Source: Desulfatiglandales bacterium (GTDB lineage: Bacteria; Desulfobacterota; DSM-4660; Desulfatiglandales; Desulfatiglandaceae). From it: DNA of 64,000 bases. Positions within the stretch are counted from its first letter, which is position 1. Every line of letters starts with the position of its first letter. A program made the translations under genes and the position numbers. The notes beneath the pieces are model-generated. The model was not told where the DNA came from. It saw only the letters and a program-made list of their open reading frames with translations, and did no database searches. Below, in pieces: positions 1-12,701 of the stretch. Location: NCBI GenBank assembly GCA_963662465.1, contig OY759599.1:4896001-4960000 (forward strand). The letters run 5' to 3'.

Positions 1-2
1 GA

Positions 3-1169
3 GAAAAACAGAGGCAAACGGCCTCTTCTACATCGGAGTCTCGCCCCTCGGGTCAGAGTAAATCCACCACCAGGGATACCGTGCCACCTGAAATTATCCT
101 GATCAGTCCGGTCCAGAATGACAGAGATTTGGTGCTGACCCTTAAAAATTTAGAAATCATTGAGGGCCAGGTCAAAGATGACAGCCCGCTGGTGTTTTTC
201 AGGATCAACAATGAAGATACTGAGGTGAACGGGGATGGCTTTTTTTCCAAAGCCATTGTTCTGAAAAAAGGAGACTGCAAGTTTATTCTGGAAGCGCTGG
301 ATAATGCCGGCAATCGGGCGATAAAAGAATTCAGCCTTTCCAGAAAACCGAACGGTTCAGGCCCGGAAGCAAGGGCATGGGCGACTGCAAAAATGCCGAC
401 TCTTTGGGGCCTTTCCATCGGGGTTTCCAAATACGGCAGTACAGCTGTGGATCTAAAATACGCGCATCTGGATGCGCAGAGTCTGTCACGGTTCCTGAAA
501 GATCAGGAGGGTAATCTCTTCAAAGAAGTCCATTTTAAAACCCTTGTCAACCAGGAGGTCACAAGGGATGTGGTACTGAAAACGATTTCCAGTCACTTGG
601 GCAAGGCATCTGAAAATGATGTGGCCTTCATCTTCATTGCGGGACATGGCATCAAGCATTCTCAGACCGGTTCCTATTATTTCATGCCTTATGATGCCGA
701 TTTCAACACGGCACTGTCCAAAGGCCTTCGTATGTCCGACTTTAACGAAGCTATCAATATTCTGTCAAAAAATGTTCGGAAAGTGATTGTTGCTATGGAT
801 ACCTGCCATGCCGGCGCCATTGGAGGAAGCGGGGAAAGAGCCATGGGCGGCGGAGAGGATCTTACCCGAGTTCTTGAAGCAGCCTCCGGAAGGTTTATCC
901 TGGCCGCATCAAAGGGCGGGGAAGCTTCTCTGGAAAATGAAAAATTCAAGCTCCATGAGGGGGATTCGGGGCATGGGGCTTTCACCTATGCCTTGATCAA
1001 AGGCATGTCGGGGGAGAGTGATTATGATGGAGATCTCTGCATCACCCTGCAGGAGCTGTCCCACTATGTGGCCAAGCAGGTTCCGCGTTTAACCGATGGG
1101 TGCCAGCATCCCTACTTCAGGTCCGAAGGGACGGACATGCCCTTTATACTTCTCGGTAAAGAACCATGA
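3..1169 (+). CDS. Caspase-family (peptidase C14, orthocaspase-like) protein with a preceding Ig-like module; 5'-truncated by the window edge
   Basis: His-Cys dyad motifs FIAGHG and DTCHAG, plus IGVSKY..LKYA..DA and GHGAFTYALIKGM. The frame is open from base 3 (EKQRQTASS...RDTVPPEI), so the real start lies upstream. Confidence 0.9.
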   Translation, partial: EKQRQTASSTSESRPSGQSKSTTRDTVPPEIILISPVQNDRDLVLTLKNLEIIEGQVKDDSPLVFFRINNEDTEVNGDGFFSKAIVLKKGDCKFILEALDNAGNRAIKEFSLSRKPNGSGPEARAWATAKMPTLWGLSIGVSKYGSTAVDLKYAHLDAQSLSRFLKDQEGNLFKEVHFKTLVNQEVTRDVVLKTISSHLGKASENDVAFIFIAGHGIKHSQTGSYYFMPYDADFNTALSKGLRMSDFNEAINILSKNVRKVIVAMDTCHAGAIGGSGERAMGGGEDLTRVLEAASGRFILAASKGGEASLENEKFKLHEGDSGHGAFTYALIKGMSGESDYDGDLCITLQELSHYVAKQVPRLTDGCQHPYFRSEGTDMPFILLGKEP

Positions 1170-1206
1170 TTGTCGCTGATGCTTATGAAAGGGAAAGGAG
1201 CGTGTT

Positions 1207-1902
1207 TTGAGAAATAATTGTACCCCCATTGCGTTTTTGCGTCGGACAATGCTCACCGCTGTTATGCTTCTGATGGGTTGCGCCGCCTCTCAACCGGTTT
1301 CGCCGGTGACCAAAATCCCACCTCCGCTGAAAAAAATAGACTGGTCCAGACTGCCTCCTGCACCCAAGAAAAAAGCCTTGGTGGCGGTGGCCGGTTTCGA
1401 GAACAAGAGCACCTATTCCGCCGATAAGCTCTGGGACACATCGTCCCAGATCCTGGCGGCATATCTTTTGCGCAGTGGCTATTTCCGGGTGGTGGAATGG
1501 TCGAAAATGAAACGGCTCTTTGACTGGGATACCCTGAGCGCCGCCAGTATTATCAAATCTCCGGAGAACATGAAAAAAGCCCAGCGCATTCTGCTCTGCG
1601 AGGATTTTATTTCCGGATCCATCACCTATTTTGATGTGCGCCAGCATGCTCAGGTGAGTGCCATGAGCAAGCAGAAGACCATCGACACCACCATTCGGGT
1701 CGATCTGCTGCTTCAAAGCGCACAAACCGGAGAATACCTCGCCGCTGGAACCGGGGAATCTTCGGTGAGGCAAGTTTACGCCGGGGGACTCTCCGGGGGA
1801 CAGACCGGCAGCTGGGACCCGGCATCCGCCGATAGGGCTTTGGATCAGGCTATTGGAAAAGCGCTATTTGAATTGATTGAGAATTATCACCGGCGGGGAT
1901 GA
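1207..1902 (+). CDS. CsgG/HfaB-family lipoprotein
   Basis: Lipobox LLMGC; VAVAGFENKS...LLRSGYFRVVE...ISGSITYFD...RVDLLL..TGE pattern; AAGGAG RBS 6 nt before the TTG start. Confidence 0.75.
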   Translation: MRNNCTPIAFLRRTMLTAVMLLMGCAASQPVSPVTKIPPPLKKIDWSRLPPAPKKKALVAVAGFENKSTYSADKLWDTSSQILAAYLLRSGYFRVVEWSKMKRLFDWDTLSAASIIKSPENMKKAQRILLCEDFISGSITYFDVRQHAQVSAMSKQKTIDTTIRVDLLLQSAQTGEYLAAGTGESSVRQVYAGGLSGGQTGSWDPASADRALDQAIGKALFELIENYHRRG

Positions 1903-1912
1903 AATTCCTTCT

Positions 1913-3184
1913 CTACTCATGCTGCAACGCCGTAATGGGATCCATCCGCGCCGCCTTCCGGGCAGGGTAGAGACCGAAAAAGACCCCCACAAAGACCGAC
2001 ATGAACAGGGGCAATACCACGGCGTAAGGGGTTACCGCCGTATCCCACCCGGCCCAGTGGGTGATGACCCATACCGCCCCCAAGCCCAGGCATACACCCA
2101 TCACACCGCCTACAGAGGTCAGCAGCACCGCCTCGGTAAGAAATTGAAACACAATGTCTCCACGGGTTGCGCCGATAGCCCGGCGGATTCCGATTTCCCG
2201 GGTCCGCTCGGAGACCGTAGCCAGCATGATGTTCATGATGCCGATGCCACCCACCAGGAGGGATACTCCCGCAATGGCCCCCAGCACAATGTTGAAAACG
2301 CGCTGGGTTCGCCGGGCCTGGTTCAACAGCTCCATGGGAACAATCACCTGGTAATCCTTCACCCGGTTGTGGGCCACCTCCATCAACCGCTCCACCATCT
2401 GCCCCGCCTCCAGGACCGTGTCCGTGGAAATCGCCCGGGCCACGATTTCGCTGAGTGCCTCTCCGCCCCAACGACCAGCCTGCCCAGAACGCCGGTCCAC
2501 CCCCGTATGAGCCCCCAGAGGAAGGAAGATAACCTGATTGAAATCGCGACTGACCATGGCGCCGCTTTCCTCCGTCTCCCGGGTGACCCTTTCCAGAATA
2601 CCCATTACCTTGAAGAGGTGGTCCCCAATCCGGATATCTTCTCCCACCTTCCCCGCAACACCGAAATAGGCGGCAACACCGGCGCCCAGCACGCAAACCA
2701 GATTCCGTTTGGCCACATCCCCATCGGCGATGAAGCGCCCTTTTGAAAGGCAGAGACCCAGCACCTCCGCATAACCGGGGGTACACGCAAAGATCTGCGG
2801 TGAGACATCCCGGGAAATCCCATGGGCCGAGGCTTTCACCTCCTTGAGGCAGACCGTATCCCGGATGAGGGGGCAGCTTCGCCGGATCTGCGCCATGTCC
2901 TCCCGACTCAGGCCCATGGACCATCTGAGGCGGGCCTTGGTCTGCTCCTCCGCCGTCAAGGCCACGGCTGTGATATAGATATTCCGGGCACCCAGTTCCT
3001 CAATCTGCCGGACCACCTTTTCCCTGGCACCCTCGCCTACAGACACCATGGCCAGTACAGCCATCACACCGCATACCACCCCCAGGATGCTCAAGGCGGA
3101 CCGGAGCTTATGGCGCACCAGGGATCTGGCGGCCACATGTATGGTCTTTACCGCCTGCTCAATCCGCCTGAACAACTTCGCCAT
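1913..3184 (-). CDS. MacB/FtsX-type ABC transporter permease
   Basis: RSALSILGVVCGV, VGGIGIMNIMLATVSERTREIGIRRAIGA and YPARKAARMDPITAL signatures. Confidence 0.93.
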   Translation of the reverse strand: MAKLFRRIEQAVKTIHVAARSLVRHKLRSALSILGVVCGVMAVLAMVSVGEGAREKVVRQIEELGARNIYITAVALTAEEQTKARLRWSMGLSREDMAQIRRSCPLIRDTVCLKEVKASAHGISRDVSPQIFACTPGYAEVLGLCLSKGRFIADGDVAKRNLVCVLGAGVAAYFGVAGKVGEDIRIGDHLFKVMGILERVTRETEESGAMVSRDFNQVIFLPLGAHTGVDRRSGQAGRWGGEALSEIVARAISTDTVLEAGQMVERLMEVAHNRVKDYQVIVPMELLNQARRTQRVFNIVLGAIAGVSLLVGGIGIMNIMLATVSERTREIGIRRAIGATRGDIVFQFLTEAVLLTSVGGVMGVCLGLGAVWVITHWAGWDTAVTPYAVVLPLFMSVFVGVFFGLYPARKAARMDPITALQHE

Positions 3185-3842
3185 CCTTCAGCACCACGGT
3201 TCGTCCCGCGTGGGCCGCCACCTCACGGTCATGGGTGACCATGATAACGGTGACCCCAGCCTTGTGAACACCTCGGAAAAGGGAAAGGATATCCTTCCCT
3301 GTCCGACTGTCCAGGTTCCCCGTAGGCTCATCGGCCAGGATCAGTTTGGGTCCCATAACCATTGCCCTGGCAATGGCCACCCGCTGCATTTCGCCCCCTG
3401 ATAGTTCGCCCGGCCTGTGGGTCAGCCGGTGCTGCAAGCCCACATGTTCCAGGGCTTCCAGTACCCGCCCATGGGGATCTTTCCCTTTGCTGCCGCTCGA
3501 ATATAGAAAGGGTACTTCCACGTTCTCCACGATACTCAGGTCCGGCAGCAGGTTGAATGTTTGAAACACGAATCCGATGGCATCGGCCCGCACGCTGGCC
3601 AGTTCCCGGTCGGAGGCCCAGCGGATGTCCACACCATCGAAAATATACTGCCCGGAGGTGGGCCTCCCCAGACATCCAAGGATGTGCATGAGGGTGGACT
3701 TGCCCGATCCGGAAGGCCCCATGACGGCCACCCACTCCCCGGATTGCACCGAAAAATCAACGCCTCTGAGAACAGGGATCTCGGTGTCTCCCCTCATATA
3801 AGTTTTGACAAGGGATCGGGCGTCTATCAGCGGTTGCATCAT
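3159..3842 (-). CDS. ABC transporter ATP-binding protein (MacB/LolD type)
   Basis: Walker [39 protein letters not shown]. Confidence 0.95.
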
Positions 3843-5290
3843 TATCCCCCCGGTCTTACGAGGGCCACCTTATCCCCCGGTTTCAGGCCTGCCAGGACCT
3901 CCACCAAGTCTTCATTTTCACGGCCTGTCCGCACACCCACTTTATCAAACCCGCTCATCCCCTGCCGATAGCAGAAAGTGTCCACGCCTTCGCGGAATAC
4001 CGCCTGAATGGGCACGGTGAGGACCGATGACGCCACTGCTTTGCTCAGAATGGAAACCCTGGCGGTCATGCCGGGCCTCATTCGGTCGTCCCGCCCCTTC
4101 AGGGCGACCCGCACCCGAAAATATTTCTCCCCATTGGAACCCTCAAACCGATTGGCAGCCATGACTCCGATGAATATCACTTCGGCCTGGAAGCGCGCGT
4201 CCGGGTAGGCGTCCATGGTTACCCGACAGGGCTGGCCCAGCCGCACCTTGTGGAGGTCGATCTCCCGGACCTGGGTCTTGACGATGAGGGAGGTGATGTC
4301 CGGCAGATAGAGAAGGGGCTGGTTCTGCCACGCCTTATCCCCGATCCTTGGCTTTCGCTTCTCCCCGTCCCGAAATGTTTCAAACAATATGGCGATTCCC
4401 TCGCAGGGCGCACAAATGACCGTTTTGTCCATCTCCTCCCGACCTCGCTGAAGGGCGGTTTTTTTGCTTTCCAGTTTTCCCAGGACTTCGTGAAGGGCTG
4501 CATCGGCCTGGGCGACCTTGTAAACACTCCCTTTTCGGGTCTGCTCCAGCTCAATTTCGGCCCGTTCCACCTGGGACTTGGCGGTTTCCACCAGCGAGGG
4601 AAGGACATGGGCTTTGTAGCTGGTGTATTTGGTTTTGGCCGACTCGTACTTTTCCTTCAGTTCGGCATACTTATCCTTTGCCAGACTGATCTCCGTGGGG
4701 TTCCCGAAGCCTTTTGTGTTGAGCTTTTCCAGGTCCCGAATGTAGGCGGCGTAGCGGCCTGACTCCTCCTTTGCGGCCCGCATCTCCTCCCCGTACTGGG
4801 CGAGGTTCAAAGGGCCTTCCCCTTCCACCACCTTTTTCAGGTCCAGGTGAGCCACCTTGAGAGTGTATTCCGCCGAGCGGATCTCGCGACCCACCTGGTT
4901 TTTCTGCCACTCCACCTTCTGTCGTTCCCCTTCCACTGCCGCCTGAAGGCTCAGGATCTCGCCGTCCAGTTCCTGGATACGTTCTTCGAAGGGGGTGGGG
5001 TCCAGACGCACCAGCACGTCCCCTTCCTTTACCTGGATACCTTCCTCCACCAGCCAGATAATCTTGCCCCGGTCGCCCCGGATGGACGAGGAGACCATGC
5101 GGGAGTGGGCCGTGTCCAGTACCCCAAGAGTGCTGACGCGCACCTCGAAACTTCTGGGCAGGGCGGTGCTAACCCGGACCTGCTGCTCTTCGGGCGCGGA
5201 GCCGCTGTAGCGCACGGCGAGGATCGCCACGAGGCAGGCCAGGGTGGCGCCCAGGAGGTACTTGGGGATGGTTTTAGTGCGATTGGGCAT
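3842..5290 (-). CDS. Periplasmic adaptor (membrane fusion protein, MacA/HlyD type) with a long coiled-coil hairpin
   Basis: N-terminal TM anchor, split lipoyl motifs (VEEGIQVKEGDVLVRLD; ICAPCEG), MRPGMTARV, VPIQAV, GLKPGDKV. Confidence 0.9.
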   Translation of the reverse strand: MPNRTKTIPKYLLGATLACLVAILAVRYSGSAPEEQQVRVSTALPRSFEVRVSTLGVLDTAHSRMVSSSIRGDRGKIIWLVEEGIQVKEGDVLVRLDPTPFEERIQELDGEILSLQAAVEGERQKVEWQKNQVGREIRSAEYTLKVAHLDLKKVVEGEGPLNLAQYGEEMRAAKEESGRYAAYIRDLEKLNTKGFGNPTEISLAKDKYAELKEKYESAKTKYTSYKAHVLPSLVETAKSQVERAEIELEQTRKGSVYKVAQADAALHEVLGKLESKKTALQRGREEMDKTVICAPCEGIAILFETFRDGEKRKPRIGDKAWQNQPLLYLPDITSLIVKTQVREIDLHKVRLGQPCRVTMDAYPDARFQAEVIFIGVMAANRFEGSNGEKYFRVRVALKGRDDRMRPGMTARVSILSKAVASSVLTVPIQAVFREGVDTFCYRQGMSGFDKVGVRTGRENEDLVEVLAGLKPGDKVALVRPGG

Positions 5291-5322
5291 TGTGTTTGTG
5301 TTGCTCAGGGTTGTATTATTTC

Positions 5323-5396
5323 ACCACGGAAACACAGAGATAACAGAGGTTTTTGAAAAAAAGTTTTTTTACAGTGTTAGCTGTGTAATCCGTGGT
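5323..5396. repeat. Imperfect inverted repeat ACCACGGAAACACAG...CTGTGTAATCCGTGGT
   Basis: Complementary arms around an A/T-rich spacer; a related element lies at 8427-8473. Confidence 0.6.
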
Positions 5397-5409
5397 ATAG
5401 AATCCTCCT

Positions 5410-6465
5410 TTACTGTGCGAGCCCACGAAGTGTCAGTGGTTCACTAATGGCGACCCGGGTTGTGCCTTCATTATCTTTGTACCAGAAAGCGTAGTTCCCG
5501 GTTTCATCACTGGCTGAATAGGACCTCGATACCCACCATTCCTGGTCGCAATAGGTCCCTTTAGCCGCAATGACCGTACTCGGTTGATCACAGAAAGTGA
5601 ACCAGTTGACGAAATCATCAGAGGAATATAGACATTCGGCCATCGTTGTGAGGCATTCGTTAAACTGACCGAATCGCAGCACTTCAACCGGGTAGTTGTT
5701 TGGGTTGTACACCGTGTATGTCAATTCATAAAATAGGTCAGATGGTCTCTGAATTGGATCAACCGGATTTGGCGAAAAAGTGATTTCAAGGGGCTGGTGC
5801 GTTTCAGAAGGGTATATGATGTACACATCCTTGATGGTGGCGGTAACCTCGCCGCCATTGGGGCCAGTTCCCACGCCGAACCAGTTGTAGTAATTTGTTC
5901 CTTCCATATCAAAGGGGGGCTCAAATTTTCTTGTTCCATAGCCCTCCACGTAATACCAAACCTCATTTCCGACCCTTGTAAGCGCCATCGTAATATCTTG
6001 TCCAAGTCTATACTGCCAGTCCCCGAAAAACCCATCCATATATCTTTCTATATTCCATTCAGTATCATTTGAACGATTTAAAACGCAGCTAATTGGCGCA
6101 AAGCCTTCGGAACCTGGGTCACTTAAGTACCAATATCCAACACGAATATTTGCAGTCAGATAATCATTACCGAGATAGCCCGCTCTTTTGCCAATACCGC
6201 AACCGACATTGTCTTTTAGATGGGATATGTGAATGGTAGCCTGAAATCCAAGGCACCCTTCGTAATCTTTTCCGATACTTACATTCACATTTTGCCCGCT
6301 GTTGATTGTAGCTGTAGCAGAATTTTCAAAGAATTGCCAAGTTCCTTGCTCGTAATTCCAATCCACAAGGCTCTCGACCGGTACGAGTCTCTGGGCAGTA
6401 CATACGTTTGAATGAACCATGAAGCAAGAAAAAACGAGTAATGCAAGGATTGTCTTTATCTTCAT
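5410..6465 (-). CDS. Secreted hypothetical protein with two beta-rich domains
   Basis: Start reassigned to MKIKTILALLVFSCF (AGGAGG RBS upstream); signal-peptide-like N-terminus; first domain is paralogous to 6522-7154. Confidence 0.75.
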   Translation of the reverse strand: MKIKTILALLVFSCFMVHSNVCTAQRLVPVESLVDWNYEQGTWQFFENSATATINSGQNVNVSIGKDYEGCLGFQATIHISHLKDNVGCGIGKRAGYLGNDYLTANIRVGYWYLSDPGSEGFAPISCVLNRSNDTEWNIERYMDGFFGDWQYRLGQDITMALTRVGNEVWYYVEGYGTRKFEPPFDMEGTNYYNWFGVGTGPNGGEVTATIKDVYIIYPSETHQPLEITFSPNPVDPIQRPSDLFYELTYTVYNPNNYPVEVLRFGQFNECLTTMAECLYSSDDFVNWFTFCDQPSTVIAAKGTYCDQEWWVSRSYSASDETGNYAFWYKDNEGTTRVAISEPLTLRGLAQ

Positions 6466-6521
6466 CAGTTTGTTCCTCCTGTTCGCCTGTGCAGAAAGTG
6501 GCCGCAATTTTTTCGCATTTT

Positions 6522-7154
6522 CTAGTCCGGGTAAACGACCGAAACGTCCTTTATCGTTGTCGTGATCCGGCTGCCGGGCGTTAAATTCTCCACGTCAAAT
6601 TGAACGTTATCGGCCATCTCACCCAGATTGATGGTTGGCGCGAACTTGGATACCCCATAGCCTGGAACGGTAAACCAGATTTCATTTCCGCTACGAGCGA
6701 TTTCCACAGTGATATCCCTGCCGGTAAGGAGTTCGAATTCCCCGAGATAACCGACTTCATAGGTATTTGACCAATAGCCCTCTGGATCTATCAGCGCAAT
6801 GTAATAGGATATTTCCCCTTCCCCATCCCATCCGCCATAGCCGATGTCCACGCAGGCCCTTACCGTGTGGTCACCCACGGTCCCTACGGTTTTGCAGATT
6901 CCACAACCGGAAAAGCCGACAATACTGCCCAGATTGATGGTGGCGCGAAGGCCCACGGAATTCTGGTAATTACCCCGCAGAATAGCCCAGCCACCCGCGT
7001 TTGTAACGGTGGCCGCGTTGCCGGAAAATACCCATTCACCCTCGGAATACCACCCCGACAGACTGGAAACGGGCTGATAGGTGAAAGCTTGGGTCAAGCC
7101 GACGGGCAGAATCAGCCATAGAGCTAGAAGCTGGGAAAAAACTTTTTTCTTCAT
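6522..7154 (-). CDS. Secreted hypothetical beta-rich protein
   Basis: Signal peptide MKKKVFSQLLALWLILPVGLTQA; AGGAG RBS; collinear similarity with 5410-6465. Confidence 0.75.
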   Translation of the reverse strand: MKKKVFSQLLALWLILPVGLTQAFTYQPVSSLSGWYSEGEWVFSGNAATVTNAGGWAILRGNYQNSVGLRATINLGSIVGFSGCGICKTVGTVGDHTVRACVDIGYGGWDGEGEISYYIALIDPEGYWSNTYEVGYLGEFELLTGRDITVEIARSGNEIWFTVPGYGVSKFAPTINLGEMADNVQFDVENLTPGSRITTTIKDVSVVYPD

Positions 7155-7233
7155 TTCACACTCCTTTCTTCAGATTTCGGTTTTGTAGGATCTGGAACTA
7201 ACTTTCTCCATGAAAATCACTTTCAAATTGTTT

Positions 7234-8400
7234 TTATCTTCTGATGCCGACAATGGCCTGGGTAACCCCGAATTCCCTCCCCGGGTAGCATGGTGCATTT
7301 GCCGAAGTCCAGTGTCGGGATATGGTTCCGCCGCCTTCCAGTCGGTTCCCCGAAGAATCCAGGCGGAGTTCCCGTTCGACCCGTTGATAGCTTGTCCAGG
7401 TCTCTCCCGGAGTACCATTCTCATCTTCGTAAGAGTACCTTAGGACGCCGCCTGAAAAGGTTCCCTGGTTAGTTCCATCGGAAGAAGAAAGCGTTACGGT
7501 GGAACCTTCCTGAGTAATGTTTACGTCATAGGTGTAATAGCCCCATATCTCCGCACCTGGGTGACATTCTTCATTGATCTTCTCCACCGGTGTATACTGA
7601 AACTGCCAACTCCCCGCAACCGTTGGGGCTGGTGGAGGGGGGGCGGGCGAGCTGTCATCTCCCCCGCCGCCTCCTGCAATCGCGGCACCCCCGCCCACGA
7701 CGGCGGCGGCGCCTGCGCCGATGCCCACCATGGCGCCGGTGGAGAGACCGGTGGAGGCGGCGACTGTTCCTCCGCTGGTGGCGGCGGCCGCGGCGCCGGT
7801 GGCGCCCCCGGTGGAGGCAATCTGGGTGGCGGTGTAGATGCCGGCCGCCACAAAGCCGAATCGCGCAGAGGACTCCACCACGTCCATTACGATTGAATCC
7901 GTAAAACCGGGTACCGTGGCAGGCGCCGATGACAATTCAGTACTCACCTGAATGGAACCTGTGGAAGCCACCTGCTGATATTCAGGAAGCGCACCCTGAT
8001 CCGCAGGCTTTCGCTCGGCCTGAAAGGCCTGTGTGCGCACCACTTGGTCTTTGTTGTTGACCGCCAGGATGAGATAGCTAATGGCGGCGGTGTTCTCGGC
8101 GGGCGCAGGCAGGATCCCCTGGTATTGATCTCCCTCGGAAAGGGCCATGGGCACGAACACATAATCCGCCTGGCCGACCGCCTTGAAATAACAGCGAACC
8201 AGCTTCACTCCCGCCGGGTCCTCCACCTCGGCCTTTATCCGAATGCGTTTCCCCGGAACAAAGGTGGTGATGGGATCGGTATCGATCTCGGTTTCGACCT
8301 TCTGAGCACCGGCGCCGAACGCTCCGCAAACAGGCAGAATCCACAGGAATACCGCCAACAGGGATAACACTATCCCAGACTTTCCTCTCTGTTTCACCAT
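7234..8400 (-). CDS. Exported protein: conserved Ig-like N-terminus, Gly-zipper segment, Pro linker, variable beta-rich C-terminal domain
   Basis: Signal peptide; N-terminal ~230 aa match 10157-11401; GGAGG RBS. Confidence 0.85.
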   Translation of the reverse strand: MVKQRGKSGIVLSLLAVFLWILPVCGAFGAGAQKVETEIDTDPITTFVPGKRIRIKAEVEDPAGVKLVRCYFKAVGQADYVFVPMALSEGDQYQGILPAPAENTAAISYLILAVNNKDQVVRTQAFQAERKPADQGALPEYQQVASTGSIQVSTELSSAPATVPGFTDSIVMDVVESSARFGFVAAGIYTATQIASTGGATGAAAAATSGGTVAASTGLSTGAMVGIGAGAAAVVGGGAAIAGGGGGDDSSPAPPPPAPTVAGSWQFQYTPVEKINEECHPGAEIWGYYTYDVNITQEGSTVTLSSSDGTNQGTFSGGVLRYSYEDENGTPGETWTSYQRVERELRLDSSGNRLEGGGTISRHWTSANAPCYPGREFGVTQAIVGIRR

Positions 8401-8426
8401 GTTTTTCCTCCTTGTTTGGTTTTTTT

Positions 8427-8473
8427 ACCACAAAACACAGGATTAAAAAATTCTTCCTCCGTGCCTCTGTGGT
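8427..8473. repeat. Imperfect inverted repeat ACCACAAAACACAGG...CTCCGTGCCTCTGTGGT
   Basis: Same ACCAC...GTGGT termini and ACACAG core as 5323-5396. Confidence 0.5.
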
Positions 8474-8484
8474 GATGACATCCT

Positions 8485-9912
8485 TTATCTTTCAATGAGC
8501 GTGCCCAGGGCGCCACGGAGCCGATAGGTCCCAATGATATAATCCGTCTGGACCGTCAATAGATCCAGCTGGGACCGTTGCAGCTCGGTTTCACTTTCGA
8601 TTACGTCAAAGTTGCTGGCCATGCCGTGATTGAACTTGATTCGCGCCAGTTCCAGTTTTCCTTGGGACTGCCGGATCTGCTCTTTCCTGAGAATGCTGCG
8701 TTTTCGGGCGTCCTTAAGGGCGTCCAACTCACGCCGTACCTCGCGCACGATCTCGTCCCGCCGGGTGAGCATGGAAAGGCGGGTGGTTTCGATGTTCATG
8801 AGGCTCTGCCGAAAAGCCCCCTTTTCCGCGGTACGGGCCCAATCCGTGCCGGTCACCAGGTTGATGCTCCAGCTTTGCTCGTTGAACCGCCAGGAATCCC
8901 CGAAGTTATCGCCCAAATTATAGCGCTTATAACCGGCCACCAGGTTCAGCTTGGGCAGCAGATTGCTCTCTGAGACTTTCGACTGCCGCTCCGATTCCCG
9001 CAGAGCATCCTGGGCCTGTTCTAGTTCTACGCGGTTCTTGAGCGCCACCCGAACGGCCTCCTTTTCCCCAATTTCCATGGTTTCGGGAACCAAGGGAGCA
9101 GAAACCCGGATGTCCTCCTCCATGGGCAGGGCCAGGATCAGTTTGAGGTCGTCCTTTTTGTTTCGAAGGGTCTCCTGAGTACGGTTGAGTCCGTCCTGGG
9201 CATCCTTGAGCCGGATTTCAGCCCGGTAGATGTCAATGGGGGAAGCCATGCCCACTTTTTCCTTGACCCTGGCGGACTGCACATCGCTCTGTAAACGCGC
9301 TGCCTGGGATTCGTAAAGCCGCACGGACTCCTTCTCTTTAATAACGTTGTAGACCGCGCTAACGGTTTCCAGCACTACACCCACCCGCGTCTGGTAGAGG
9401 GAACGTTCCGCACTACGGACCCCGTACTCGGAGGAACGCACACCGCTCAGGTTCACCTCTCTGCCGAATCCCCGAAGCAGGGGCACATCCACAAAGGTGT
9501 CGACCCTGCCCGTATAGCCGTTTTCACTTCGACCCACGTAAGGGGCGACCGAGACCTTGGGACCGTACTCGAATTTCTTTTCCAGGGTCATCCCCAGCCC
9601 CAGCCCCTTGTCCGTGTCCGAAACATAAGCGTCCGAGCCCGGGATGAACTTGAGTTCGAATTCGGACAATGACGTTTGGAGCGATACCCGGGAACCCTCC
9701 AGCCCGTAGGCCGATGTCAAAAGACGCCGGTTGGCTTCCAGGGCCTGATTGATGGCCTGCTCTAGGGACATGTGTATGCTTCGAGCCGGTTGGGCGTTTG
9801 TTGCAGGCCAAAATTGGGAATGTGCCTCAAAGGCGGTCAAATGATGGAAGAAGATACTATGAAAAATGAAGATACACATGAGGAAATGAGCTGTTTTACA
9901 TTTTGGGATCAT
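8485..9912 (-). CDS. TolC-family outer membrane efflux protein
   Basis: MSLEQAINQALEAN, VPLLRGFG, YNVI, KVGMASPIDI and FNHGMASNFDVIESE: the duplicated OEP repeat pattern. Confidence 0.9.
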   Translation of the reverse strand: MIPKCKTAHFLMCIFIFHSIFFHHLTAFEAHSQFWPATNAQPARSIHMSLEQAINQALEANRRLLTSAYGLEGSRVSLQTSLSEFELKFIPGSDAYVSDTDKGLGLGMTLEKKFEYGPKVSVAPYVGRSENGYTGRVDTFVDVPLLRGFGREVNLSGVRSSEYGVRSAERSLYQTRVGVVLETVSAVYNVIKEKESVRLYESQAARLQSDVQSARVKEKVGMASPIDIYRAEIRLKDAQDGLNRTQETLRNKKDDLKLILALPMEEDIRVSAPLVPETMEIGEKEAVRVALKNRVELEQAQDALRESERQSKVSESNLLPKLNLVAGYKRYNLGDNFGDSWRFNEQSWSINLVTGTDWARTAEKGAFRQSLMNIETTRLSMLTRRDEIVREVRRELDALKDARKRSILRKEQIRQSQGKLELARIKFNHGMASNFDVIESETELQRSQLDLLTVQTDYIIGTYRLRGALGTLIER

Positions 9913-10156
9913 CAGTCAAAAAACAGGCATCCAGCGCAATCAACACTGATTGAACTATATTTAGTAGGTCTATTGATTTCAAAAGTCAGAATTGAAAAAC
10001 CTTCCAACCTGAAGTGTAGAACTCAAGGTTAGTGCGAGGAATCAGGCGCCTCTTTGAAACTTTATTATCCATGGAGAATACCTGAAAAGTCTATCACACA
10101 ACCACAGCGGCAAGAAGACTTTATAAACGCCACTTATGCTTGACGGAAAACGTTGC

Positions 10157-11401
10157 TTATAGCAAACTATTGCAAAGAAACCCCATGCCGCCACCTTGAA
10201 TACCGCAATCCGGCAATTGCCAGTTCAATCTATCACTGGTATTATTGACTGTAACAGCAAACACTATTCTGCCATTTTGATCTGTAACCGACGTACCTCC
10301 TTGGTTTGTTCCGTACTGCCAAGATATCCGCACTCCTTGTCTTGGCGGTTCAGTAATGATAGAAAGCCCACTTATGTCAGTACCACAAACTACGCTAAAA
10401 TCGGGATAATTCTCAAGACGCGCACTATCCGGGCAAACATTTGGAATCGTTGTGGTTGTAGAAGTTGTTGTGGTTGTAGGTCTCGTCGTGGTGGAGGTTG
10501 TAGAAGTTGTTGTGGTTGTAGGTCTCGTCGTGGTGGAGGTGGATACCGTTGTGGTCGTTGTGCTTGTAGAGGTGGATGTTGAGGTTGTCGAGGTCGTGGT
10601 GGAGGTTGTCGTGGTCGTAGTTGTGGGCTGTGGTTGCAGACTGCTCGCGTCATCCCCTCCTCCACCGCCTCCCAGAGCTGCAGCGCCGCCCCCAATCACC
10701 GCTGAGATCCCCACCCCAATGCCCACTTTGGCGCCGGTTGAAAGCCCGCTACTAGCAGTGACGGTTCCCCCGCTGGTTGCAGCCGCCGCATCGCCTGAAA
10801 TTGGGTCCGCCGAAGCCCTCTGAGTGACTGCGTAAATACCGCCCACCACAATCCCAAAACGAGCAGAAGACTCAACCAGGTCCATTGCAATGGAGTCACT
10901 GAAGCCTACTGGCGGCTGACTAGCCTCGGGAAGTTCGGTGTAGAGCAGAATATTCCCTTCAGTATCGCTCAATTGCCAGGCCGGGACATCCTTTTCATCT
11001 TTTTCTTTCACTATGAAGGTTTGGGTTTTGAATACCTGATTTTTTCCGTTGACCACCAGAAAAAGATAATCGATCATGCTGGTGTCTTTGCTCGAAGCGG
11101 GGAGAATAGCCCGATACGTTCCTTCTTTTACAGCCGTCATCGGTACAAAAACATAGTCCTTTTGGCCGCCTGCTCGAAAATAGCACCGAACCAGATTGAT
11201 GCCAGATTTATCGTTGGCCTCAATTTCCAATACAATCCTCTTTCCGGGAACAAAATACTCAATTGGATCGTAACCGAATTCAATTGAAGGGTTTGGATCT
11301 GTCGCGCCAAATAATAACGTTCCATTAGGAGGCAAAACAAATAAAATACTCGCGACAATGCACAATAATTTTCCAAAAAAATGCATTTTCATCTTTTTCA
11401 T
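10157..11401 (-). CDS. Exported protein, paralogue of 7234-8400, with a Thr-rich linker and a different Cys-containing C-terminal domain
   Basis: Signal peptide; shared FVPGKRI, LVRCYF, DYVFVPM, VESSARFG and GLSTGA.VGIG motifs; ~60-aa T/S tract. Confidence 0.85.
   Translation of the reverse strand: MKKMKMHFFGKLLCIVASILFVLPPNGTLLFGATDPNPSIEFGYDPIEYFVPGKRIVLEIEANDKSGINLVRCYFRAGGQKDYVFVPMTAVKEGTYRAILPASSKDTSMIDYLFLVVNGKNQVFKTQTFIVKEKDEKDVPAWQLSDTEGNILLYTELPEASQPPVGFSDSIAMDLVESSARFGIVVGGIYAVTQRASADPISGDAAAATSGGTVTASSGLSTGAKVGIGVGISAVIGGGAAALGGGGGGDDASSLQPQPTTTTTTTSTTTSTTSTSTSTSTTTTTVSTSTTTRPTTTTTSTTSTTTRPTTTTTSTTTTIPNVCPDSARLENYPDFSVVCGTDISGLSIITEPPRQGVRISWQYGTNQGGTSVTDQNGRIVFAVTVNNTSDRLNWQLPDCGIQGGGMGFLCNSLL
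10454..10537. repeat. Exact 42-bp tandem duplication within the Thr-rich tract
   Basis: GGTTGTAGAAGTTGTTGTGGTTGTAGGTCTCGTCGTGGTGGA x2. Confidence 0.9.
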
Positions 11402-11505
11402 TTCGCTCCTCTCGCTCCTCCATAAAAATGGTCAACAAATTTTATGACTTGATAACAATCTGTTTCCTGAAATGCACTGACCCGGCAAAACAGAATAATC
11501 TGACT

Positions 11506-12291
11506 TCATTTCACATTGATGCGGACTTCCATGGCCTGTTGCAAAAGGTCTCCAGTTTCCAGTTTAACCGGACCTATGGGGAGGGTTTTTAGCATTTCAT
11601 GAACCAGCCATGCGACCCTTTCCTTCCGAGAGGCGTTTTTGTGACCAAGGAAATTTATAAAAATGTTTATGGGATCCACCTGCCATTGTCGATGTGCCGC
11701 TCGCCATTGCTGGGTTTGCCAAAGAGTCGTTCCCGTTTTGCAGTCTCGCAGATTGAGGGAACAGGAAACAACAACCGCATCATATACACCCTGGTGGATG
11801 CTGGCGGATTGCTCAATGCGACCTGACAGGATCGCATCACAATTGAGTAGTTGGCCCAGCCTGGAAGTCGCAATACCGCTGATCTGCCCAGGGGTTTGAA
11901 TGCCGAGGGAGTTCATAACACGGTCAACTTTTTGTGCAGAAATCGTCATATAACCCTTGGCTTTGAGACTGCGGTACACCTCGGTGTAAAGGAATCTTTC
12001 CACATCAGGTTCGAGAGAAAAATTGTCCATGGGCAAAACGGCAATTACGCCAGAGCAGTAATCACCGAATTCAGGATGAGTTGACCAAGATTCCTTTTCC
12101 GACAAATCAGAAGAAAAGACCTTAGTATTAACAATCATTAGCAAGGTTGTCGCAGCAATGAAGAGGGTTATCCAGTTAATATCTTGGAAGGATTTAGGCA
12201 TGCCTAGAAGGCCTGTACAAGGCAAGAGAGTATTTTTCAAGTTCCTCACGGACGCTTTCAAACGGCCTCCAGTTTTACAAGTCCTTTTCAA
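11506..12291 (-). CDS. DUF799/GNA1162-like protein; start uncertain (12291 TTG or 12201 ATG)
   Basis: IAVLPMDNFS...LKAKGY...LGQLLNCDAILSGRI...LRDCKTGTTLW pattern. Confidence 0.7.
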   Translation of the reverse strand: MKRTCKTGGRLKASVRNLKNTLLPCTGLLGMPKSFQDINWITLFIAATTLLMIVNTKVFSSDLSEKESWSTHPEFGDYCSGVIAVLPMDNFSLEPDVERFLYTEVYRSLKAKGYMTISAQKVDRVMNSLGIQTPGQISGIATSRLGQLLNCDAILSGRIEQSASIHQGVYDAVVVSCSLNLRDCKTGTTLWQTQQWRAAHRQWQVDPINIFINFLGHKNASRKERVAWLVHEMLKTLPIGPVKLETGDLLQQAMEVRINVK

Positions 12292-12422
12292 ACTGCTTGC
12301 TCAATCATGTTGACTTTCTGCGGCCACAGTCAGAGAAAGCAATGCAGTATTAGAGCATCTGGAGTCTAAACAACTTTCAAGAATTCAATGGGCGACATCA
12401 TATCATCAGTGAAAATTCTATG

Positions 12423-12701
12423 TCAATAAGTTTTTTTAATGGTTTTCAGCTGAAAACCATTAAAATATTGGGTAAACTGAGTATTCGTTTTTGATAACAT
12501 GATGCTGTTCCCGCAGGTATGGTCCGCATGGGCGTGGGTGTTGAGCACATACTTCAAGGTTAACCCCAAGGCATCTATCCTGCTGAGAATCTTCCCCTCG
12601 GCGCCCGCCGGATCGATAACCAGGGCCTCTTTTTCGGTTTCGCAGTCCACAATATAGGCAAACACCGCCATGGGCCCAACCTTCATCTGTTCTATCAACA
12701 T
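12423..12701 (-). pseudogene. 3'-truncated metallo-beta-lactamase-fold hydrolase (glyoxalase II-like)
   Basis: VGPMAVFAYIV..ALVIDP..VLNTHAHADH (HxHxDH) is present, but similarity ends at ~12485. Only 92 aa versus ~200 for the family. Confidence 0.8.
12434..12465. repeat. Perfect 32-bp palindrome TTTTAATGGTTTTCAG|CTGAAAACCATTAAAA
   Basis: Arms checked base by base; lies at the island/core junction. Confidence 0.9.

Follow-up and report, generated by a model that had tools for sequence, protein, structure and literature searches.

A recurring cluster of MacB-type pump and modular carrier genes in a Desulfatiglandales bacterium, and its possible role in surface display

We analysed a window of 64,000 nucleotides from the genome of a Desulfatiglandales bacterium (GenBank assembly GCA_963662465.1, contig OY759599.1, positions 4,896,001 to 4,960,000 of the forward strand). 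Its first 12.5 kb encode a MacB-type pump with a TolC-family outer-membrane factor and two putatively exported proteins, which we call carriers A and B. The locus lies within a complete genome of 8.16 Mb (hereafter G000). All 11 open reading frames (ORFs) of the initial annotation were found intact, in the order and on the strands that it had given, with a caspase and a CsgG gene facing a minus-strand run. The C14 protease, which it had described as intact within the window, does have intact catalytic motifs, but its ORF is cut by the window edge and the 5′ part lies upstream. The window truncates this side of the cluster: the caspase gene and a co-oriented DUF4384 gene start before base 1, and the cluster itself starts approximately 2.1 kb before that base. 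The plus-strand run DUF4384-caspase-CsgG converges on the minus-strand run, as listed below in window coordinates unless otherwise indicated.

L001:17926-19347, + strand: DUF4384 gene, co-oriented with and upstream of the caspase gene, outside the window
1..1169, + strand: C14 caspase-like protease, 3′ part of the gene, accessory module (Pfam, alignment)
1207..1902, + strand: CsgG-family lipoprotein, accessory module (Pfam)
1913..3184, - strand: MacB-type permease (MacB_PCD and FtsX), core (Pfam)
3159..3842, - strand: ABC ATPase of the MacB/LolD type, core (Pfam)
3842..5290, - strand: membrane fusion protein (MFP) of 482 residues, core (Pfam)
5410..6507, - strand: exported beta-protein 1 (beta2-like domain and second domain), local passenger
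6522..7154, - strand: exported beta-protein 2, local passenger
7234..8400, - strand: carrier B, 388 residues, core
8485..9912, - strand: TolC-family outer-membrane factor, core (Pfam OEP)
10157..11401, - strand: carrier A, 414 residues, core
11506..12291, - strand: GNA1162/DUF799-like protein, accessory module (Pfam)
12397..12426, - strand: sigma-70-like promoter match (11/12 with TG) at the head of the minus-strand run (consensus match alone)

The C14, CsgG, MacB_PCD and FtsX, ABC_tran, HlyD-type MFP, OEP and GNA1162/DUF799 families of Pfam are all matched above cut-off. For carriers A and B and both beta-proteins, neither Pfam nor NCBIfam yields a family at cut-off. The core of the cluster consists of a carrier, TolC, the MFP, the ABC ATPase and MacB.

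The two carriers are 51% identical across 229 residues and unrelated beyond. Carriers are composed of a putative signal peptide, an immunoglobulin (Ig)-like module, an uncharged Gly/Ala segment, a poly-Gly linker and a C-terminal domain. In carrier B, the putative signal peptide is followed by an Ig-like domain (residues 38-130) and a conserved subdomain (131-213) with an ES-x-x-R-FG motif at Arg180 (window 7861-7863), then by the hydrophobic Gly/Ala segment (~222-241, window 7678-7737) and a poly-Gly/Pro linker. The AlphaFold2 (AF2) model is confident for the subdomain up to residue ~180 and of low confidence for the Gly/Ala segment (217-247). Residues 257-388 are predicted to form an eight-stranded, avidin/lipocalin-like barrel (Z 10.5, root-mean-square deviation (rmsd) 2.7, 98 aligned residues). 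Carrier A has the same N-terminal module and Gly/Ala segment; beyond these lie a stalk rich in Thr and Ser and a C-terminal domain with four cysteines that bears no relation to the one in carrier B.

No further carrier paralogue was found in G000. A word search collected 85 relatives, 82 of which were used to build a profile, and the profile search yielded 342 carrier-family clusters at E < 1e-30, at least 150 of them listed. The carriers belong to an unnamed family. An atlas search with the carrier N-region returned unnamed clusters only, and fold searches gave generic Ig-like and eight-stranded barrel folds, with residues 133-256 barely covered. A single-protein scan of genome contigs produced two low-complexity matches only. 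No longer carrier forms of 784-2235 residues turned up, which is weak evidence. Three short carriers (P0077, P0201 and P0204) have, after the hydrophobic segment, a single strand closing with Trp and no passenger domain. Two proteins of 3000-4000 residues with beta-helix and PKD regions (P0119 and P0211) contain 17-19 repeats that match the carrier Ig-like domain.

In the profile alignment, conservation extends to residue ~248 and collapses thereafter. An Arg is aligned with Arg180 in 80 of 82 carriers, and the proportion of charged residues falls from ~25% before this position to 1-4% across the next 60. Further statistics were computed on 176 of 209 proteins, the remaining 33 having no match to the motif pattern. 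The N-terminus is hydrophobic in 164 of them (no signal-peptide predictor was used), and 131 contain a G/S run. The C-terminal part has a median length of 120 residues. Over the 20 residues after the Gly/Ala segment, 127 carriers have a net acidic and 20 a net basic charge. The number of cysteines is even in 83 of the 92 C-termini with at least two Cys and in 25 of 31 cluster representatives, against a Poisson expectation of 60%. Recognizable C-terminal domains include lipocalin, Ig/PKD, LamG, Lcl_C and NHL. A BLAST analysis grouped 169 C-termini into 47 clusters, and in 21 of the 61 carrier pairs with at least 80% identity between N-terminal modules the C-termini belong to different clusters. 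Some of these pairs have N-modules 94-97% identical and unrelated C-termini. The C-terminal domain of the carriers is thus demonstrably swapped, as the initial annotation had proposed.

N-terminal fusions to carriers were found with PG_binding_1 (two proteins) and with a FecR-like domain below cut-off (one protein). The peptidoglycan-binding fusions place the carrier N-terminus in the periplasm, and the paired cysteines, adhesin-type domains and acidic flank place the C-terminus outside the cytoplasm. The simplest reading of these sequence features would be a topology across the outer membrane, N-terminus in and C-terminus out, with the membrane-like segment between. The carriers might instead be single-pass inner-membrane sensors or pump accessories, with the caspase acting in envelope signalling and no protein being exported. 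Consistent with this, 167 of the 176 carriers contain a 19-mer with a mean hydropathy of at least 1.6, and several adjoin genes for Ser/Thr kinases, FHA, PP2C or type VI secretion system-like proteins. Nevertheless, a cleaved signal peptide followed by a stop-transfer segment would leave the C-terminus in the cytoplasm, at odds with the paired cysteines and the acidic flank. Moreover, on a rough insertion scale that makes for a weak test, the segments of the window's two carriers score about +3 kcal/mol, compared with -1.1 to +1.2 for four MacB helices. We consider this alternative improbable.

The pump genes encode a permease with a periplasmic core domain, an ATPase, an MFP and an OEP protein together, which is the composition of a MacB-type tripartite pump. 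The MFP is ~110 residues longer than MacA of Escherichia coli, the surplus being in the helical hairpin region. In TolC, the beta region of the first repeat comprises 58-67 residues in all 11 orthologues. In the AF2 model (predicted local distance difference test score 87.6), each protomer has six beta-strands, of which repeat 1 contributes four and repeat 2 two; this would make an 18-stranded channel if the protein is trimeric. Its fold matches solved structures with Z 29 and rmsd 3.8 over 381 aligned residues; these are ordinary TolC/OprM proteins. We rejected the assignment of the pump as an equivalog of E. coli MacAB-TolC, as the scores are below the NCBIfam equivalog cut-offs (188.8 against 966 bits for MacA, 62.6 against 342 bits for MacB) and six TolC strands are predicted instead of four. 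A complex prediction with two TolC copies and residues 128-262 of carrier B scored 0.00, which is evidence neither way. A second TolC-like gene of the genome (G000:C1:6241622-6243343) apparently also has an extended first beta region.

The genomic association of carriers and pumps was analysed from both sides, and the recurrence of neighbours that the initial annotation had put forward as a check was found from carrier to pump and from pump to carrier. Among 37 metagenome carrier loci, 21 of which have less than 3 kb of flank, close orthologues of TolC are encoded in nine, of the MFP in seven and of MacB in five. CsgG and DUF799 orthologues occur in 12 each, the caspase in two and DUF4384 in one. 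TolC orthologues are found in nine of the 15 loci with at least 1.5 kb downstream. Of the 16 loci whose flank reaches 3 kb or more, 10 contain a module gene and six contain none. One locus (L007) repeats the whole arrangement of the window, minus carrier B and the beta-proteins.

In a sample of 401 genomes from the phylum, two have the carrier family, one the close CsgG subfamily and six the TolC subfamily. Co-occurrence is above chance, given the frequencies of CsgG and TolC in these genomes (1/401 and 6/401) and in the carrier loci (12/37 and 9/37). Both carrier genomes are among the six with the pump, and none of the other 395 has a carrier. Two further pump genomes encode, directly upstream of TolC, a protein whose N-terminal domain is unrelated but whose Gly/Ala segment is the same, with a small domain at the C-terminus. 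The remaining two have no such gene adjacent. In two additional samples, the TolC subfamily was detected in 33 of 381 and 5 of 209 genomes, and it was found in none of 10 other genomes of the window's genus, so that the system has a patchy distribution.

Of 33 new TolC loci, nine with less than 1.4 kb upstream were set aside and 24 were assessed; related genomes among them are not independent. A carrier-type gene directly precedes TolC in 11 loci, with seven full family members and four detected by the Gly/Ala segment. Such a gene is found in the wider flank of three more loci (one by a weak segment match) and elsewhere in the genome for four more, one of them with several dispersed copies. 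One genome (G562; contigs C1, C14, C15 and C35) combines a single pump locus with six or more dispersed carrier-type genes. We rate the cluster as real and recurring. The initial annotation had described a common N-terminal carrier region; what all pump-linked genes have in common is the hydrophobic Gly/Ala segment and not the Ig-like N-terminus. A carrier-TolC co-phylogeny was not supported, as the similarities of the two proteins correlate weakly (rho 0.26, 10 loci, pairs not independent). In one locus (L130, G579:C3), the MFP and MacB genes are split across frames, which is due to decay or sequencing error, and two carrier matches (G575:C60:23930-24877 and G610:C107:3478-4560) contain one TGA stop each.

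Another possibility is that the substrate of the pump is a small molecule, lipid or glycan; the carriers, the CsgG-like and DUF799-like proteins and the caspase would then be co-regulated envelope proteins whose genes travel with the pump, and not its cargo. The three of 24 pump loci with no detected carrier fit this idea, as do the six-stranded TolC-like proteins without adjacent carriers, in G022 and G063 and in Brachyspira (10.1101/2025.01.03.631275). CsgG-fold rings are also reported to serve polysaccharide export, as with PelC (PMC12141448). Nevertheless, the loci contain no recurring biosynthetic genes, and in many unrelated families the gene immediately before TolC is the carrier, including cases where its N-terminal domain has been replaced. 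We regard this explanation as quite unlikely, and the carriers as the probable cargo of the adjacent MacB/TolC pump.

Other genes adjoin carriers in some loci. A FlgT_N/LipL46-like protein of ~430-490 residues and a lipoprotein of 160 residues recur (six and four times, respectively, in the carrier loci; L009:7889-9925, L014, L019, L021, L023, L024 and L033). These loci lack the caspase of the window, the FlgT_N-like protein is weakly similar to the N-terminal domain of the caspase, and neither protein was found in the window's genome. In L025:456-13576 and L026:201-19011, carriers are clustered with PAAR-like, VipA/VipB-like, FHA, PP2C, FHA-SLT and Ser/Thr kinase genes; one kinase has a C-terminal DUF4384, and an Lcl_C/Ig lipoprotein comes next. 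In L011:530-5677 and L012:148-2380, carrier genes immediately follow those for FHA proteins and a CpaF/T2SSE-type ATPase.

The two beta-proteins are local passengers of the cluster and not conserved members, contrary to the initial annotation, as none of the 37 carrier loci encodes them. Among 13 re-fetched pump loci, one (G653) has a beta1-like gene, upstream of the same TolC type. They share 31% identity across 216 residues, and beta-protein 2, for which only two close relatives were found, has a weak atlas lead to a 3-keto-disaccharide-hydrolase-like fold.

The full caspase gene, which starts ~0.6-0.7 kb upstream of the window, codes for 585-619 residues with a hydrophobic N-terminus, an alpha/beta domain, an Ig-like domain and the C14 domain (PF00656, 54.3 bits for a cut-off of 21.4). 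Its His-Gly and Asp-x-Cys motifs are intact, and both motifs are present in the four full-length homologues aligned. The search for structures revealed no close solved one. A second C14 protease is encoded elsewhere in the genome (G000:C1 2622903-2624285). The link between caspase and CsgG that the initial annotation had drawn was borne out: as the two are fused in both orders, caspase-CsgG with another C14 subtype in L034 and L036 and CsgG-caspase in G653, the caspase is tied to this CsgG, and the caspases so linked are of two different C14 subtypes.

The CsgG-like protein has a lipobox-like LLMGC sequence and belongs to a tight subfamily (47-78% identity). The Pfam CsgG and GNA1162 matches relate the locus proteins to the rings of curli CsgG, GNA1162 and PelC type. 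Unlike in curli CsgG, the hairpin regions are short (24 and 36 residues, compared with 30 and 46 in E. coli CsgG) and polar, relatives are fused to caspases, and no CsgF or curlin was found in G000 with PF10614 and PF07012, for which controls matched in E. coli. The lack of curli partners led us to reject a curli role, and the secretion ring envisaged in the initial annotation is unlikely; these features suggest that the protein is likely a periplasmic ring or scaffold rather than a second secretion pore. The DUF799-like protein, whose real start is probably a downstream ATG near 12201, lacks a lipobox and belongs to a subfamily with an invariant QWRxAHRQW motif. It has a profile match to solved GNA1162 (4hrv, E 5e-7). 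Local comparison of hidden Markov models gave no link between the N-terminal domains of the caspase or DUF4384 protein and the CsgG or DUF799 profiles, so that their resemblance in fold is no more than an impression. A 99% complete genome with carrier and pump (G096) has no CsgG, DUF799 or caspase match. These three proteins are accordingly accessory, a frequent but dispensable module, and the single C14-CsgG-DUF799-MacAB-TolC system initially proposed needs amending in this respect.

The closest functional parallels come from two known systems. The Aat system (AatPABCD with dispersin or CexE) and the export of STII by MacAB-TolC have a MacB-type permease, a separate ATPase, an adaptor and a TolC-like channel, as here, and are dedicated to a neighbouring small Sec-exported protein that ends up associated with the surface (PMC7943197, PMC5985334). 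In contrast with Aat, the cargo here is of 350-400 residues, modular and polymorphic, an internal Gly/Ala segment replaces the acylated N-terminal glycine, TolC is predicted to have six strands per protomer, and a caspase/CsgG/DUF799 module is attached. Membership in Aat was rejected, since the carriers have no conserved Gly after the signal region and no C-N hydrolase (AatD-type acyltransferase) was found among the locus proteins scanned, the genome not having been searched.

In the LapA/LapE/LapG system, a folded N-module, an Ala-rich stretch and a poly-Gly linker precede variable extracellular domains, as in the carriers, and a TolC-like channel and a periplasmic cysteine protease are likewise nearby (10.1101/198937, PMC10990149). 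The carriers differ in having Sec-type N-termini, in being ten times smaller and in their MacB-type rather than HlyB-type transporter; RTX motifs are present in none of the 176, and the protease is of the C14 and not the LapG/C93 family. No LapG (Peptidase_C93) match was found in the complete genome G000. A LapA-type adhesin of a type I secretion system was thus rejected, given the lack of RTX motifs, the MacB-type permease and the absence of LapG from G000. By analogy, the system likely works like Aat with LapA-like retention. Brachyspira TolC-like proteins also have six strands per protomer in AlphaFold models, and the preprint describing them states that the predicted 18-stranded form had not been reported before (10.1101/2025.01.03.631275). 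It assigns no substrate or system to them, whereas the wide form described here goes with a defined gene cluster. Our literature search, which left subscription journals and bioRxiv supplements outside its scope, found no description of the cluster, and the system is apparently undescribed so far.

We regard as established which genes are present, that they co-occur, how the carriers are built and that their domains are swapped. The reading that we favour, and for which we see an even chance, is that the MacB-type pump with a predicted widened TolC moves the C-terminal domain of the carrier across the outer membrane, the N-module remaining as a periplasmic tether. The carrier would be exported by Sec and form its disulfides in the periplasm. 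MacB and the MFP would then recognize the uncharged Gly/Ala segment and feed the small C-terminal domain into the channel. MacB pumps collect Sec-exported cargo in the periplasm in its folded state (PMC5985334, PMC7943197), and dispersin, at ~20 Å, has been suggested as an upper bound for such cargo (PMC5985334); a wider channel would suit the ~100-residue barrels and sandwiches of the carriers. In a third step, whose odds seem to us about balanced, the folded N-module would be retained and the Gly/Ala segment and linker threaded through TolC, or the segment would form an outer-membrane helix. In LapA, a folded N-module holds the protein in its TolC, LapE, and release is by a periplasmic cysteine protease (10.1101/198937, PMC10990149). 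Where the module is present, the CsgG-like and DUF799-like proteins might scaffold a periplasmic caspase, the counterpart of LapG, that cuts the carrier and releases or matures its outer part; this step is doubtful. Orthocaspases cut after basic residues (PMC6426788), and the best candidate site would come after the conserved Arg of the ES-x-x-R-FG motif, where the charged sequence gives way to the uncharged one. Cleavage is the weakest part of the mechanism, because the motif could have a structural role and one system lacks a caspase.

Alternatively, the pump could secrete the whole carrier in the manner of Aat and dispersin, the caspase removing the N-module as a pro-domain and the glycine-zipper segment inserting in the outer leaflet, polymerizing or attacking neighbouring cells. 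Aat does export a Sec-dependent protein that becomes inserted in the outer leaflet (PMC7943197), 150 of the 176 carriers contain a small-xxx-small zipper, and the abrupt drop in charge right after Arg180 resembles a processing junction. Against these points, the N-terminal peptidoglycan-binding fusions argue that the N-terminus stays inside, no small immunity-type gene recurs in the listed loci, and the C-terminal domains are adhesin-like and not enzymatic toxins. We hold whole secretion to be rather unlikely.

Several observations weigh against display by a tethered carrier. Export, location and cleavage are all things that we infer. The carrier match is absent from three of the 24 pump genomes and only weak in three, and the similarities of carrier and TolC are poorly correlated, as mentioned above. 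The C-terminal part exceeds 200 residues in seven of the 176 carriers, which led us to reject a strict size limit on the passenger domain, and is shorter than 45 residues in seven others; one of the long C-termini is a propeller with six blades, whose size rules out passage in the folded state. In a few carriers, lysines come after a strongly hydrophobic segment, as they do in inner-membrane anchors. AF2 folds residues 208-213 back onto the N-module, leaving a short span for threading through TolC. Lastly, the G096 carrier keeps the family profile in a genome with no match for the caspase, CsgG or DUF799.

Some flanking features were also noted. At 12423-12701 on the minus strand lies a 92-residue ORF of the metallo-beta-lactamase fold that matches the first third of a 190-residue paralogue and looks truncated. 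Its end abuts the promoter of the cluster and perhaps marks an insertion edge. Upstream of the window (L001:15607-16962), a TumE-like toxin gene and a small upstream ORF are a possible toxin-antitoxin pair; the TumE-like gene lies between an anti-sigma-antagonist-like ORF and an HATPase_c_2 gene, ~1 kb before the DUF4384 gene. A plasmid search gave no match.

Taken in full, the proposal is of a new pathway for display at the outer membrane: a MacB motor would push Sec-exported proteins, C-terminus first, through an 18-stranded TolC, to be held by a glycine-zipper anchor and a periplasmic plug, with interchangeable tips shed by a caspase on a CsgG-fold ring. We put forward this complete scheme tentatively, as a possibility that is more likely wrong than right. 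Even if nothing beyond the co-occurrence holds, the result is an unnamed family numbering several hundred clusters, together with its partner genes. The cluster is small enough for reconstruction in E. coli, and the exchange of domains seen in nature points to a use as a surface-display tool. If the scheme is true, the carriers would be the first class of proteins put forward as substrates of the unexplained 18-stranded TolC-like channels and would give envelope-located bacterial caspases a concrete substrate and job. It would also offer Gram-negative bacteria a route for displaying folded, disulfide-bonded and interchangeable domains that needs neither a beta-barrel anchor nor a lipid.

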